Notes: generated by a model not told the origin, from the letters alone. DNA of 64,000 bases from Frankiales bacterium (GCA_025465465.1 JAODND010000045.1:14098-78097); one strand, 5' to 3'. Shown: positions 35,930-39,857, counted from the first letter of the stretch. Numbers and translations are program-made.

Positions 35930-37618
35930 CTACTTGACGGTGAAGGTCTGCTTCGTCTCGTAGCTGTCGAGATCGCTCACCCGGATCTGAAGGTCGATGA
36001 CGTAGGTGCCCTTCGACGGGATCACCAGGTTCAGGTCCTCGTAGTGGCCGATCGACTTCAGCGGCGGCGTGACCGTGATCTGGTCGGAGCTGCCCTTCTT
36101 CTGCAGGAAGCCGCTGACCTCGGCGACGGTCTTGGTGAGCCCACTGCTGGTCAGGACGGTGTAGACGTGCAGCCCGTTGACGCCCTTGCGGGCCGGATAG
36201 ATGTCGACGGCGACGGTGTAGGGACCAGCGATCGACTTGCCGGTGTACGGCGGCGCGAAGGCCTCCTTCGCGGGGATGCTGTTGACGAGGAAGGCCGTCA
36301 CGACGAGCACCACCACGCTGAGGGCCGCCTCGACGCCGACGCTGCGGCGCAGTCCGGCCACGTCGTCGCCTCCGGGTGCTTCGGGTGGCGCGGCTGTCTC
36401 GGTCGCCGCGGCCACGACCGGCCGGGTGTAGTGCGACCTCACATAGGCGCGTCCGACGAGCGCGAACAGCAGCATCAGCCCGACGAGGGCGTACTTCGAG
36501 ACGAGCAGCAGCCCGTACCGCGTGCTGAACAAGGCACCGACCTCGCCCACCTCGCGGATCGTGGCGAAGACCCCGGTGGCGACAAGCAGCACCACCGACC
36601 AGAAGGCGAGCCGTGACCAGCCGGGCAGCAGCGCCGCCTGCTCGTCCTCGGTCCACGAGCGCAGCCCCCGCCTCAGGACGACGAGCCCACCGACCCAGGC
36701 GCTGACGAACACGAGGTGGACGGTGTCGAACACGTCGGTCCACGGTTCCCACGAGCCGACGCCGGCATGCCCGGCCGCCGACCAGGTCATCGCCATCACC
36801 AGCCCCAGGCCGGCGAACAGCCCCGCCGAGGCCCGACCGAGGCGCTTGCCGACCGCGAGCACGGCGACGGCTGCCAGGGCAGCGACCGCGATCCGGGTCG
36901 AGGTGGCCTCTCCGTACTTCGTCTTCATGACCGCCGACAGCAGGCTCGTGTCGAAGGTCTTGCCGAGTCCGTCGCCGGCCGCATAGGGCCCCTCGAGGAA
37001 CAGCGCGAGGGCTGCCGTGACGGACTCGACGAGGGCCGCACCGAACAGCATCTTGCGCAGTCTCGGCACGCCCGCGGGCCAGAGGAGCAGGCAGAAGATC
37101 GCGCCGCCGAGGAAGACGAGCAACGCGGCGAACCCGAGGAAGCGGGTCGTCCCCAGGGCGATGCTGGGCGCGCGGGGGGCGGCGTTCAGCGACGTGAGGT
37201 TTCCTCGTCCGACCCGCGCAGCGAGGTCACCACTTGCCTTGCCGACGCTGAACGTGAAGGCGCCCGACACCGGGTGGCTGTCTGCGGACACGACCCGCCA
37301 GAGGACGACGTACGAGCCTTGCGCGAGTCCGCGGCTCAGGGGGATGTGCACGACCGAGCCGCCCCCGCTGAGGAAGGGCACGCCGTTGTCGACCCGGGCG
37401 CCCTGGGCGGTCTCGACCTTGAGCTGGCCGAGCCCGATCGAGACGGCCTCCCCATAGGTGAGGGTGACCTCCGTCGGGGCGCTGTCGAGGATCTGCGAGT
37501 CCTGCGGGGTGGTCTTGAGCAGCGCCGCGTGGGCCATCGCCTCGGGAGCGGCCAGACCGAGCAGGAGCAGCGCGGACAGAAGCGCTCCCATCAGGGCGCC
37601 TGCGCGGCGCATCCTCAT
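35930..37618 (-). CDS. CopC/CopD fusion copper resistance/uptake protein (YcnJ-like)
   Basis: Signal peptide then HAALLKTTP, WRVVSADSHPVSG (CopC); multi-TM CopD region with GHA, HLVFVSAWVGG, YGLLLVSK. Confidence 0.92.
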   Translation of the reverse strand: MRMRRAGALMGALLSALLLLGLAAPEAMAHAALLKTTPQDSQILDSAPTEVTLTYGEAVSIGLGQLKVETAQGARVDNGVPFLSGGGSVVHIPLSRGLAQGSYVVLWRVVSADSHPVSGAFTFSVGKASGDLAARVGRGNLTSLNAAPRAPSIALGTTRFLGFAALLVFLGGAIFCLLLWPAGVPRLRKMLFGAALVESVTAALALFLEGPYAAGDGLGKTFDTSLLSAVMKTKYGEATSTRIAVAALAAVAVLAVGKRLGRASAGLFAGLGLVMAMTWSAAGHAGVGSWEPWTDVFDTVHLVFVSAWVGGLVVLRRGLRSWTEDEQAALLPGWSRLAFWSVVLLVATGVFATIREVGEVGALFSTRYGLLLVSKYALVGLMLLFALVGRAYVRSHYTRPVVAAATETAAPPEAPGGDDVAGLRRSVGVEAALSVVVLVVTAFLVNSIPAKEAFAPPYTGKSIAGPYTVAVDIYPARKGVNGLHVYTVLTSSGLTKTVAEVSGFLQKKGSSDQITVTPPLKSIGHYEDLNLVIPSKGTYVIDLQIRVSDLDSYETKQTFTVK

Positions 37619-38328
37619 GACTCAGCTCTTCCGCTGCGGCCGCTGCGCACCAGCGCCCCGAGGGCGAGCAGCGCCGCGAGCACGGCGACGGCCAGCCCCG
37701 CGCCGCCAAGAGCCTTTGCGGTGCTGTCGTCACTGGCGGTCTTTGTCGCGATCGGCGCTGCGGAAGCGCTGACGCTGACCTGAGGAGAGGCCGTCACGGT
37801 CGGCGTGCCCGGTGTGGTCGGCGTCCCGAGCATGAGCACGGGAGCCGGGTGCTCGGCTGACGCGCCGGTCTCGATCCAGCGGACGACGGTGCCGTCCTTG
37901 TAGGTCTGCACGGCCTTGAACGTGATGCTGTCGGTCTCCGGCAAGTGGCCGGCAGCGAGGGTGAAGTCGTCATACCCGCCGGGCGGGATGCCGCCGGCCG
38001 TGGCGGTCCAGACCACATCGACCACGGCGGTCGTGATGTCGCCGTCGTCGGTCTTGATCGGCGTCGCGAGCTTCGTGCTCTTGACGGTGAACGTCCAGCC
38101 GGTCTTGGCCTCGGCATAGACGCCGGCGATCGGCTTGTCGGCAGGCAGCGCGATCTCGACCTTGGTCGTCGGTGCGGGCTCCTCGTTGGGCACACGGAAC
38201 ACGATCTCCGCGTCGTCGCCGCCCGGGGTCGCGTCACCACTGTGCACGGTGACGTGGGCGGCGGCGGGCAGGGCGAGCAGGATCACGGCAGCGGCCGTGG
38301 CGGGCAGGGCAAAGCGCTTGGTGTGCAA
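37615..38328 (-). CDS. ycnI: YcnI/DUF1775 copper-binding membrane protein
   Basis: AAAHVTV, FRVPNE, FKAVQTYKDG..VRW, EHPAP, C-terminal TM; AGGAG RBS and TTG start. Confidence 0.9.
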   Translation of the reverse strand: MHTKRFALPATAAAVILLALPAAAHVTVHSGDATPGGDDAEIVFRVPNEEPAPTTKVEIALPADKPIAGVYAEAKTGWTFTVKSTKLATPIKTDDGDITTAVVDVVWTATAGGIPPGGYDDFTLAAGHLPETDSITFKAVQTYKDGTVVRWIETGASAEHPAPVLMLGTPTTPGTPTVTASPQVSVSASAAPIATKTASDDSTAKALGGAGLAVAVLAALLALGALVRSGRSGRAES

Positions 38329-38329
38329 G

Positions 38330-38393
38330 GGAACTCCTGGTCTGAGTGCGGGACGGGTGACTACTGCGCGGAGGCGAGTAGCACCGGAGGTCC
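38330..38393 (-). promoter_or_regulatory. Predicted SD-sequestering RNA structure linking the leader RGPP codons to the ycnI RBS
   Basis: mRNA GGACCTCCGGT (38393-38383) is complementary to ACCAGGAGTTCC (38341-38330); inner hairpin GGTGCTACT/AGTAGTCACC. Confidence 0.55.
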
Positions 38394-38951
38394 ACGCCGC
38401 GGCGGCTGCGCAGCGACCCAGGAAGTGCGAGGTGCAGCGATGACGAGAACGTGAGGGGCACGCCGCACCGGTGCCGGCACCGTCGGCAGCGCCAGCCGAC
38501 GTCCGAGCCGGAGCGCCTTCGCGCCGGCGCGCACGATCGCATCGGCGGTCCAGAGGCCCGCGTCGGCGCGACCGAGCAGCACGCTGGTGAGCACGACAGC
38601 AGCGCCGTGGCTCATCAGCATGGTCGGGGTGACCCCGACCAGCAGGTGCGGCACCCACGAGGCGCGGCCGGACGTGACGTCGGTGCACATCGCCTCGAGC
38701 AGCAGGTGTGTGACGACCTGCGCCGTGAGCACCCAGGCGGCGAACGCGGGAACCCGACGGCGCGACCCGAGGAGGGCGACCGCTGCGGGCCAGCAGACGC
38801 CCGCCGCCACGAGCAGCGCGAAGACGCTGTCGCAGCCGTCGACGAAGGAGTGGGCGATCGCCGCGCCGCCGACCGTCGGGACCGTGAGCACGGCCGCGCG
38901 CACCCCGCGCACCACACCGGAGTGCGGGTCGACGCGGAGGGAGTCGCTCAC
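38361..38951 (-). CDS. His-containing multi-TM leader protein with C-terminal RGPP motif
   Basis: Hydrophobic segments with AIAH, VVTH, MLMSH; ends AAQPPRRGPPVLLASAQ directly upstream of ycnI. Confidence 0.82.
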   Translation of the reverse strand: MSDSLRVDPHSGVVRGVRAAVLTVPTVGGAAIAHSFVDGCDSVFALLVAAGVCWPAAVALLGSRRRVPAFAAWVLTAQVVTHLLLEAMCTDVTSGRASWVPHLLVGVTPTMLMSHGAAVVLTSVLLGRADAGLWTADAIVRAGAKALRLGRRLALPTVPAPVRRAPHVLVIAAPRTSWVAAQPPRRGPPVLLASAQ

Positions 38952-39011
38952 GCCCCCATCGTGCCCGAGAATCGGTCGCGATGCAGCACGGGGTGCGCAA
39001 GAGTGCCGCTC

Positions 39012-39857
39012 GTGACCTGGACGACCCGACCGTGCACCCTCGACGACGCGGCTGCCGTGAGCGCGGTGTACACCGCTTTCGACACGGTTGAGTTCGGTGA
39101 GCAGACCTTCGACGAGGATGACGTGCGCACGATCCTGGGACAGGGCTACGAGTGCTGGGTCGCCCTCGAGGACGGCATCGTCGGATTCGCCTCGGTGCAC
39201 CGCGAGGGCGATGTCGAGACGCTCACGCTCCCGTCGTACGACCCTGCCCTGCGCGCGCAGCTGCTGGCCCTCGTCCTCGGACGCGCCCGCGAGCACGGAC
39301 TGGGCAAGGTGTCGCACTGGGCCGGGCTCGGTGGGCTCAGCGGGCCGTTCCTGGAGTCGCACGGCTTCCAGGACGCGAGCATCAGCTGGAAGCTGGTCCG
39401 CGTGCTGCCCGCACCCGAGCCGAGCTGGCCGGAGGGGATCGAGGTCCGGCCGTTCGTGCAGGAGCGTGACGCAGTCGCCGTATGGGAGTGCGTCACAGAG
39501 GGCTTCCGCGGCACCAGCTTCGGCCGCCCCCGGTCGTTCGAGGAGTGGTCGGAGGTGCACCTTCAGCACCTCATCGACGTCGTGTGCGCCTGGTGCGGCG
39601 GCGAGCTGGTCGGCGTCTCGACCCGCGGCACGCTGCTCGGGCAGGGGTATCTCGCGCAGTTGGCAGTGCTGCCCTCGCAGCGTGGTCTCGGGCTGGGCCG
39701 GGCGCTGCTTCTCGAGACCTTTGCGCGAGACACCGCAGACGGGCACCGGCTCACGTCGCTGTCGGTGGACGGCGACAACGACGGCGCCCGGCGGATCTAT
39801 GACAGCGTGGGCATGACGGTGGACTCTGAGATGCACCGGTGGGACCTCCACCTGTGA
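39012..39857 (+). CDS. Tandem-domain GNAT acetyltransferase
   Basis: LAVLPSQRGLGLGRALL, LSVDGDN.GARRIYDSVGM. Confidence 0.85.
   Translation: MTWTTRPCTLDDAAAVSAVYTAFDTVEFGEQTFDEDDVRTILGQGYECWVALEDGIVGFASVHREGDVETLTLPSYDPALRAQLLALVLGRAREHGLGKVSHWAGLGGLSGPFLESHGFQDASISWKLVRVLPAPEPSWPEGIEVRPFVQERDAVAVWECVTEGFRGTSFGRPRSFEEWSEVHLQHLIDVVCAWCGGELVGVSTRGTLLGQGYLAQLAVLPSQRGLGLGRALLLETFARDTADGHRLTSLSVDGDNDGARRIYDSVGMTVDSEMHRWDLHL

Follow-up and report, generated by a model that had tools for sequence, protein, structure and literature searches.

Why does an operon for copper handling begin with a gene whose product ends a few residues after the tetrapeptide Arg-Gly-Pro-Pro (RGPP)? The operon lies on the minus strand of a 64,000-nucleotide (nt) stretch of DNA from Frankiales bacterium (GCA_025465465.1 JAODND010000045.1:14098-78097), here called the window and numbered from its first nucleotide. 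Its leader gene, for a 196-amino-acid (aa) four-helix membrane protein (38361-38951, minus strand; GTG start at 38951, TAG stop at 38363-38361, from the open reading frame (ORF) and its translation), is followed by ycnI and a copC-copD fusion gene, copCD. A first-pass annotation of this DNA had read the leader as a copper-sensing arrest leader in which a ribosome stalled at RGPP would cover the Gly-Pro-Pro codons and so expose the ycnI Shine-Dalgarno (SD) sequence. The arrest-leader part of that proposal is supported, RGPP being kept in 43/43 close homologues and arrest being published for the class to which such motifs belong; the switch built on the Gly-Pro-Pro codons is not.

Our answer, to which we attach a probability of about 0.72, is that the leader is an arrest protein of the RAPP/RGPP class, in which stalling and the remodelling of a stem-loop would change the expression of ycnI-copCD while metal binding or folding would tune the stall. 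By analogy, its likeliest role is that of a metal-sensing switch built into the operon, one of a kind in print since 2025 rather than a novel device. As an arrest leader it appears well supported, both by the conservation described below and by published work on other members of the class.

The leader protein and its conserved motif

The leader is a real coding gene. The GC content of its third codon positions (GC3) is 0.88, dropping to 0.63-0.73 across the last 45 codons, and a word-indexed protein search returned 46 homologues of ~195 aa, all of them without assigned names and originating from soil 'Frankiales/Mycobacteriales' metagenome-assembled genomes (MAGs) and from metagenomes. The protein ends in ...QPPRRGPPVLLASAQ*, that is, RRGPP and VLLASAQ followed by TAG, and it carries AIAH (His34), VVTH (His82) and MLMSH (His115) where the first-pass annotation had placed them. 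No Pfam model at E up to 1 and no NCBIfam model matched it.

How constant is the motif? The codons of Arg185-Arg186-Gly187-Pro188-Pro189 occupy 38385-38399 (minus strand), and the predicted arrest point, taken from the toeprint of the CruR leader in PMC12992588, places Pro188 (38390-38388) in the P site and Pro189 (38387-38385) in the A site. In alignment A1, made of 43 of the 46 homologues, residues 150-184 are variable while R186, G187, P188 and P189 are constant in 43/43; the remaining invariant positions are L22, H34, C40, W54, V58, Q78, H82, C89, H115, A129 and D130. A profile of A1 searched against 1.84 billion cluster representatives gave 844 matches with E ≤ 0.001, of which 90 had E ≤ 1e-10 and 30 had E ≤ 1e-30. 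Among the best 150 of the 844, RGPP is found in 138, RAPP in three and neither in nine, five of which are shorter than 150 aa and likely fragments, while four are 175-245 aa long. The motif ends at most 12 residues from the C-terminus in 132 of the 141 carriers of R[AG]PP in this set, the distance to the stop being seven residues in the leader and most often five in the family, and it is present at 15/15 close genome loci as well as 29/29 diverse loci across the class. This conservation is far beyond chance and agrees with the expectation that homologues would keep a C-terminal RGPP.

The nucleotides beneath the motif behave differently. The Gly-Pro-Pro codons read GGA CCT CCG at four close loci and GGA CCG CCG, GGG CCT CCG, GGG CCC CCG or GGG CCA CCG elsewhere, with GGA CCA CCA, GGT CCA CCG, GGC CCA CCC and other sets among further relatives. 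Because these synonymous positions vary freely, selection acts on the peptide and not on an RNA anti-SD sequence.

The tails that follow RGPP across the family (132 tails) have a mode of five residues, are 62% nonpolar and 29% Ala, and hold acidic residues at 5 of 704 positions; 17/132 end in Ala-Ala. Such tails may mark the finished protein for degradation, or they may reflect composition alone.

What lies ahead of the motif? Alignment A2 comprises the query and 111 representatives (112 sequences), picked for a length of 165-215 aa and for the presence of the motif. In A2, R186, P188 and P189 are invariant, G187 is found in 110/112, and position 130 is always Asp or Glu. H34 and H115 are kept in 112/112, H82 and Q78 in 111/112 and M111 in 95/112, and the His residues are therefore conserved in homologues as had been anticipated; the invariance of C40 and C89 is confined to the close set A1. 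AlphaFold2 run on A2 gave a model with a predicted local distance difference test score (pLDDT) of 89.6 and a predicted template-modelling score (pTM) of 0.74, with helices at residues 12-38, 43-60, 67-87 and 109-154. A Foldseek comparison of the model with the PDB found no relative, the best E value being 0.95. The predicted topology has both termini inside (N-in/C-in), and the positive-inside charge count fits it, with three Lys and Arg residues in the N-terminus, three in the loop 61-66 and 11 in the tail as against zero and one in the other two loops. So oriented, His34, His82, Met111 and His115 would sit where helices 1, 3 and 4 end on the outer side, and Cys40 and Cys89 in outer loops. 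The putative metal ligands span 38607-38852 on the minus strand (His34 38852-38850, Cys40 38834-38832, His82 38708-38706, Cys89 38687-38685, Met111 38621-38619, His115 38609-38607). Asp/Glu130, where helix 4 ends on the inner side, lies 49-65 residues from the motif's final Pro in A2 (median 57, interquartile range 55-59), where mean identity is 24%; the length of this linker is narrowly kept though its sequence is unconserved.

RNA structure past the arrest site

Is there anything in the RNA on which a stalled ribosome could act? A stem-loop extends from the Arg/Gly codons over the seven-codon tail and the stop (38348-38397, minus strand), is present in both the minimum free energy (MFE) and the centroid structure, and closes 10 nt before the ycnI SD. 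Its inner stem (38385-38374 with 38369-38356), which the first-pass annotation had drawn across the leader stop, forms with a probability of at least 0.96 in all four sequence contexts folded, and the outer GGAC/GTCC stem with probabilities of 0.28-0.82. This stop-spanning hairpin is robust at the locus, where the 60-nt window starting at the Arg codons has a z score of -3.4 against shuffled sequences. The same 60-nt window has a negative z score in 15/15 close loci (median -1.4). Over 44 loci the mean z is -0.69, as against -0.18 for 132 control windows within leader ORFs (one-sided Mann-Whitney p = 0.002, a value that overstates the case for folding because the loci are related). RNAalifold applied to 12 close loci missed the hairpin because tail lengths differ, and it gave no covariation evidence either way. 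For all such RNA tests there were few independent DNA sequences, since the DNA scans yielded few distinct loci: three from the metagenome scan, and 10 from the genome-contig scan that largely repeat loci of the genome search. An Rfam scan of 38200-39100 returned no match.

The ribosome-binding site (RBS) of ycnI, AGGAG at 38338-38334, stands before a TTG start at 38328-38326 (together 38326-38338, minus strand, from the sequence), in agreement with the weak start assigned at first pass, and the leader stop is 32 nt from this TTG. The two adjacent G residues of the SD at 38337-38336 have an unpaired probability of at most ~0.1 in the three contexts longer than 101 nt, the first G reaching 0.46 at 101 nt, and the pairing partner of the SD shifts with the folded context. 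The best-scoring alternative partner, TTCCTGG in the Ser-Trp codons (38418-38424, minus strand), is the best 12-nt window at four loci (L001, L003, L004 and L006). It pairs with the SD with probabilities of 0.8-0.98 in the 121- and 171-nt contexts and ~0.01 in the 241-nt context, in a register that differs among relatives.

A C-rich, G-poor tract (38233-38388, minus strand) begins at the arrest codons, crosses the spacer and reaches into the codons for the ycnI signal peptide. Its C/G ratio is 1.7-2.1 in 78-nt sliding windows, against 0.76-1.5 for the rest of the operon, which makes it the strongest C>G tract of the operon. The C/G peak past the arrest site exceeds every window of the leader ORF in 15/15 close loci and in 10/29 diverse loci. 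The tract could be a loading region for Rho, or a by-product of Pro, Ala and Leu codons.

Known arrest leaders and competing explanations

Has such a leader been described before? The main text of Fujiwara, Tsuji, Sakiyama, Niki and Chiba (EMBO J 2025, December 2025; PMC12992588) sets out a class of RAPP/RGPP arrest peptides, in which RGPP is the most robust arrest core, is refractory to elongation factor P (EF-P) and is the most avoided tetrapeptide of bacterial proteomes. As described there, the motifs concentrate near the C-terminus of small secreted or membrane proteins, the upstream ORFs (uORFs) that encode them are enriched ahead of YcnI-family, PCu(A)C, PepSY and TonB-receptor genes, and the products of uORFs upstream of YcnI mostly have transmembrane (TM) segments. 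Seven of seven S. lividans proteins arrest in PURE systems with Bacillus and Streptomyces ribosomes and in a B. subtilis reporter, and replacement of the Arg by Ala abolishes their arrest. One of the seven, SLIV_18480, has four TM segments and is encoded upstream of a metal-related gene, and AlphaFold3 predicts a site in it made up of three His and one Met; the authors also voice a metal-binding and force hypothesis for the duration of the stall. By this account, TM proteins with RGPP that lie upstream of YcnI and have a predicted His3-plus-Met site are already in print. The words 'Shine-Dalgarno' and 'secondary structure' do not occur in that main text, which holds one match beginning 'rho'.

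The leader studied here resembles this class at every level of its layout: RGPP lies a few residues before the stop, the protein is 196 aa long (<300 aa) with four predicted TM segments and a putative set of three His and one Met, the gene downstream is co-directional and of the YcnI type, and the phylum is Actinomycetota. Its family also heads PCuAC, Sco, PepSY and extracytoplasmic function (ECF) sigma genes, classes that appear in the published list. It differs in its lineage, which is that of soil 'Frankiales/Mycobacteriales' MAGs, and in that the close subfamily has two extra invariant Cys residues (Cys40 and Cys89). A look-up of the Streptomyces cluster members of the family found no SLIV locus tags among them.

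Two leaders that respond to copper allow a further comparison. CruR (Bp2923) of Bordetella pertussis, a DUF2946 protein described by Roy et al. (mBio 2022, PMC9426467) as short-lived and unstructured, stalls ribosomes at RAPP without copper and so blocks Rho, copper relieving the stall; its rut site was mapped to a C>G bubble, and the cruR spacer is 162 bp. Like CruR, the present leader is encoded by the first gene of a copper operon and has a C-terminal R-x-P-P motif, which in CruR is needed for regulation, and the spacing from metal site to motif matters. Unlike CruR, a small exported protein with a signal peptide, a CXXC pair, the 162-bp spacer and the Rho route, it has four predicted TM segments, putative His/Met ligands, no CXXC (Cys40, Cys53 and Cys89 are widely separated in sequence) and a spacer of 32 nt. 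The DUF2946 profile did not match the leader in Pfam at E up to 1, nor was there a match in NCBIfam; the description of the leader as a multi-TM actinobacterial counterpart of CruR therefore holds in the sense of an analogue and not of a homologue. In CutF of Rhodobacter capsulatus (Ozturk et al., mBio 2023, PMC9973294; bioRxiv 10.1101/2025.02.05.636593), copper is described as lengthening the stall, which melts a stem-loop over the RBS of the next gene. The present leader would resemble CutF as a copper-sensing leader whose C-terminal proline-rich stall melts a stem-loop beside the downstream RBS. CutF is, however, an exported DUF2946 protein with a stem-loop that shields the RBS itself, whereas the robust stem-loop here stops 10 nt before the SD.

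SecM, ApdA and ApdP (RAGP/RAPP) are, like the leader, membrane-targeted proteins with an arrest core of this kind close to the C-terminus, and it is accepted that a pulling force releases their stalls. Their downstream genes are sec and yidC genes, where here we find DUF1775 and CopC-CopD, and the force that acts on them comes from the translocon and not from ligand-dependent folding.

How, then, might the leader work? Judging from the motif and from published assays on other members, the ribosome would stall at the step where Pro188 occupies the P site and Pro189-tRNA the A site. At that point, if the model and the fixed linker length are good guides, residues ~150-189 would fill the exit tunnel, with all four helices outside it and the cytoplasmic extension of helix 4 having just emerged. 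The stalled ribosome would sit on the 5' arm of the stem-loop at 38397-38348 and keep the stem-loop open, and this opening could remodel the RNA just upstream of the weak TTG site of ycnI and alter the expression of ycnI-copCD. Metal bound at the His3-Met site, or the packing and folding of the membrane bundle, may alter the pull on the nascent chain and with it the duration of the stall.

Several points weigh against this account. For this operon we infer arrest itself, that copper is the signal, which way control runs and how it passes through the RNA: arrest in this very protein is argued by analogy with other members of the class, and copper is deduced solely from the adjoining genes and from the His, Met and Cys ligands. 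The likeness to SLIV_18480 comes from its published description and not from a sequence alignment, and the linker statistic comes from A2, a set pre-selected by length and motif. CruR and CutF, as published, respond to copper in opposite ways, so that neither the direction of control nor the sign of the copper response follows by analogy. At the level of RNA, the 101-nt region 38410-38310 as a whole (MFE -31.9 kcal/mol) folds no better than shuffled sequences (z = -0.43), the hairpin excludes the SD and has no covariation support, and an in silico stall mask leaves the SD closed at this locus, opening it in only 6/15 close loci.

Could the arrest site instead hold the switch directly, with the Gly-Pro-Pro codons (38393-38383) acting as an anti-SD sequence for ycnI that a ribosome stalled there unmasks? 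A duplex of -9.7 kcal/mol is possible between these codons and the SD, with ensemble probabilities of 0.29 and 0.21 in the 101- and 241-nt contexts, but it has two interruptions, falls to probabilities of 0 in the 121- and 171-nt contexts, lies outside the MFE and centroid structures and ranks only 10th when the final 150 nt of the leader are scanned in 139 windows of 12 nt, so that the complementarity noted at first pass amounts to no more than chance. In the 101-nt fold it is GUCC past the stop codon, and not the SD, that pairs with GGAC in the Gly-Pro codons; an in silico fold of the kind that the first-pass annotation had proposed as a check thus recovers the hairpin across the stop but not the duplex. 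Nor is the pairing kept in relatives: over the 15 close loci its ranks are 10, 17, 52, 11, 11, 11, 17, 26, 134, 17, 133, 49, 72, 131 and 129 of 139, and the CCUCC string is lost in 10/15 through synonymous changes. Masking the RNA under a ribosome stalled at Pro188 takes the mean SD accessibility from 0.31 to 0.27 at this locus and from ~0.32 to 0.43 over the 15 close loci, with a rise of at least 0.15 in 6/15. Arrest-site codons do pair with the downstream SD at three loci (the Ser-Arg-Arg-Gly codons in L013 and L015, the Gly-Pro-Pro codons in L055), which suggests a SecM-like layout in some members and not a family rule. With codons that vary freely and a mask that fails to raise accessibility, direct unmasking of the SD is quite improbable at this locus. 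An opposite sign of control is also conceivable: ribosomes that finish the leader would re-initiate 32 nt on at the weak TTG, and the stall would act as a brake, arrest lowering and release raising ycnI-copCD. TTG is kept in 7/7 of the closest loci that have ycnI, the stop-to-start spacing is 29-38 nt in 11/15 close loci and 30-34 nt in 3/7 diverse DUF1775 loci, and the SD is largely paired in every folded context. Four close loci, however, have spacers of 63-90 nt, long for coupling, and the characterised arrest leaders compared here, as published, turn their downstream genes on during the stall; we therefore regard a brake as improbable.

Might the output be transcriptional? In a route like that of CruR, the C-rich tract would serve for Rho loading, and the position of the ribosome would gate transcription into ycnI-copCD through Rho-dependent termination or polarity. 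The tract has the strongest C>G bias of the operon, its peak recurs past the arrest site in all 15 close loci, a consensus scan showed no intrinsic terminator, and CruR itself is reported to work in this way, with its rut site in a C>G bubble (PMC9426467). Yet only 10 of the 29 diverse loci show the peak, the skew arises in part from the Pro-rich codons of the linker and the Ala, Leu and Pro codons of the signal peptide, the spacer is 32 nt as against 162 bp in cruR, and the stalled ribosome would have most of the tract downstream of it, which leaves the polarity of any Rho effect ambiguous. On balance a Rho route seems unlikely to us. A non-regulatory explanation deserves the same scrutiny: RGPP could serve the completed protein, for instance in docking on the cytoplasmic side, and the gene could simply encode a membrane protein that handles copper, without any stall for regulation. 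In contrast to CruR, reported as short-lived and unstructured, the membrane domain shows good conservation and a confidently predicted fold, which makes a protein function beyond sensing plausible. Against a docking site stand the published properties of RGPP as the most avoided tetrapeptide and an EF-P-resistant staller, the arrest of seven of seven tested Streptomyces proteins of the same layout (both PMC12992588), and the position of the motif, 1-12 residues from the end in 132/141 and set between a variable linker and a variable tail, which fits an arrest module and not a docking surface. We consider the absence of any regulatory stall very improbable and retain the arrest leader with stem-loop remodelling as the preferred explanation.

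Family distribution, wider meaning and neighbouring genes

How widespread is the family? A six-frame whole-genome scan for ORFs with C-terminal RGPP or RAPP was too noisy without gene calls; a hidden Markov model (HMM) search of the genome, used instead, turned up one further paralogue. Across the class, the profile finds the family in 188/401 sampled genomes of the same class and in 87/175 genera, with up to seven copies per genome; the count takes in two genomes flagged as unpublished (G300 and G341), without which it is 186/399. Named members come from Streptomyces, Nonomuraea, Streptosporangium, Catenulispora, Kitasatospora, Microbacterium, Cellulomonas and Nocardioides, and a look-up in the ESM Atlas gave only actinobacterial clusters without names. 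At the 29 diverse loci the next co-directional gene belongs to PCuAC in 10 cases, DUF1775 in seven, ECF sigma in six, CopC in two, Sco1/SenC in two, PepSY_TM in one and FecCD in one. At the 15 close loci it is ycnI in nine, a family-less 471-aa membrane protein in four and a small lipoprotein with a weak cupredoxin-like match in two.

To the description in the main text of PMC12992588 these results add that one homologous four-TM His3-Met family heads YcnI, PCuAC, CopC, Sco, PepSY and ECF-sigma genes, that roughly half of the class genomes sampled carry it, with a closely kept linker length, and that the arrest site is followed, in this lineage, by a hairpin across the stop and a C-rich tract. 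Were the stall copper-responsive, genes for copper chaperones and copper uptake in about half of the sampled class genomes would come under post-transcriptional control, and a metal would be sensed by a membrane protein during its own synthesis. Such control by a leader would explain why many of these operons have no adjacent regulator gene. We can imagine a bolder generalisation, which is possible but doubtful, namely that one actinobacterial family forms a ligand-gated intramembrane force sensor, with four TM helices, an outer-face His3-Met site and a linker of ~57 residues as a 'ruler'. Copper closing the bundle would release the EF-P-resistant RGPP stall, the device would be connected to downstream genes of at least six kinds (YcnI, PCuAC, CopC, Sco, PepSY and ECF sigma), and the hairpin and C-rich tract would be its RNA output. 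The invariant ligands, the fixed-length linker, the robust hairpin and the C-rich tract give the family handles for metal sensing, the origin of the force and the output route.

Within the window, ycnI (37615-38328, minus strand) encodes a DUF1775 protein (PF07987, E 2.4e-39) of 237 aa with a signal peptide and a mature N-terminal His, and its start is TTG at all seven of the closest loci that have the gene. The copC-copD fusion gene (35930-37618, minus strand; 562 aa) matches Pfam CopC at 4.9e-22 and CopD at 6.2e-17, and its ATG overlaps the ycnI stop (ATGA); its NCBIfam matches all fall under their cut-offs. Past its CopD domain (residues 329-444), CopCD has an additional C-terminal domain of ~110 residues, within the last ~130 aa (35930-36330, minus strand), for which the scan gave no Pfam match. 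Upstream of the leader lies a divergent GNAT acetyltransferase gene. Consensus scans showed no promoter-like or terminator-like sites, including no intrinsic terminator at the leader-ycnI region, and such scans say little for Actinomycetota. In one soil metatranscriptome run (X17), from the study to which the likely source sample belongs, three read-sized contigs are identical to 38497-38651 in the leader and to 37107-37254 and 36919-37069 in copCD; they are a weak hint of transcription, as DNA carry-over is possible, and neither these contigs nor the stretches without coverage were used as evidence of expression or termination.

Three further observations concern relatives of the leader. The ~471-aa protein downstream of RGPP leaders at four close loci (L010 2081-3496, plus strand; L012 39-1451, minus strand; L008; L011) has a conserved HAFGERYELPIP-like N-terminal stretch. 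Two of the four were scanned against Pfam, with no family over threshold in those two, and the other two were assigned from N-terminal sequence; the protein may be a membrane protein with a copper-related role that has gone unrecognised. The genome from which the window comes has a second paralogue of the family (G000, contig C73; locus L059 2501-3127, minus strand; hmmsearch E 1.2e-12), with RGPP 14 residues before the stop, and 55 nt downstream follows a fusion gene of MauE/DoxX and thioredoxin/DsbA-like parts (L059 1261-2445, minus strand), a neighbour that corresponds to the 'thioredoxin' context in the list of Fujiwara et al. 2025. Finally, three loci (L033, L036 and L037) hold adjoining divergent pairs of paralogous RGPP leader genes, at least one gene of each pair heading a PCuAC gene.

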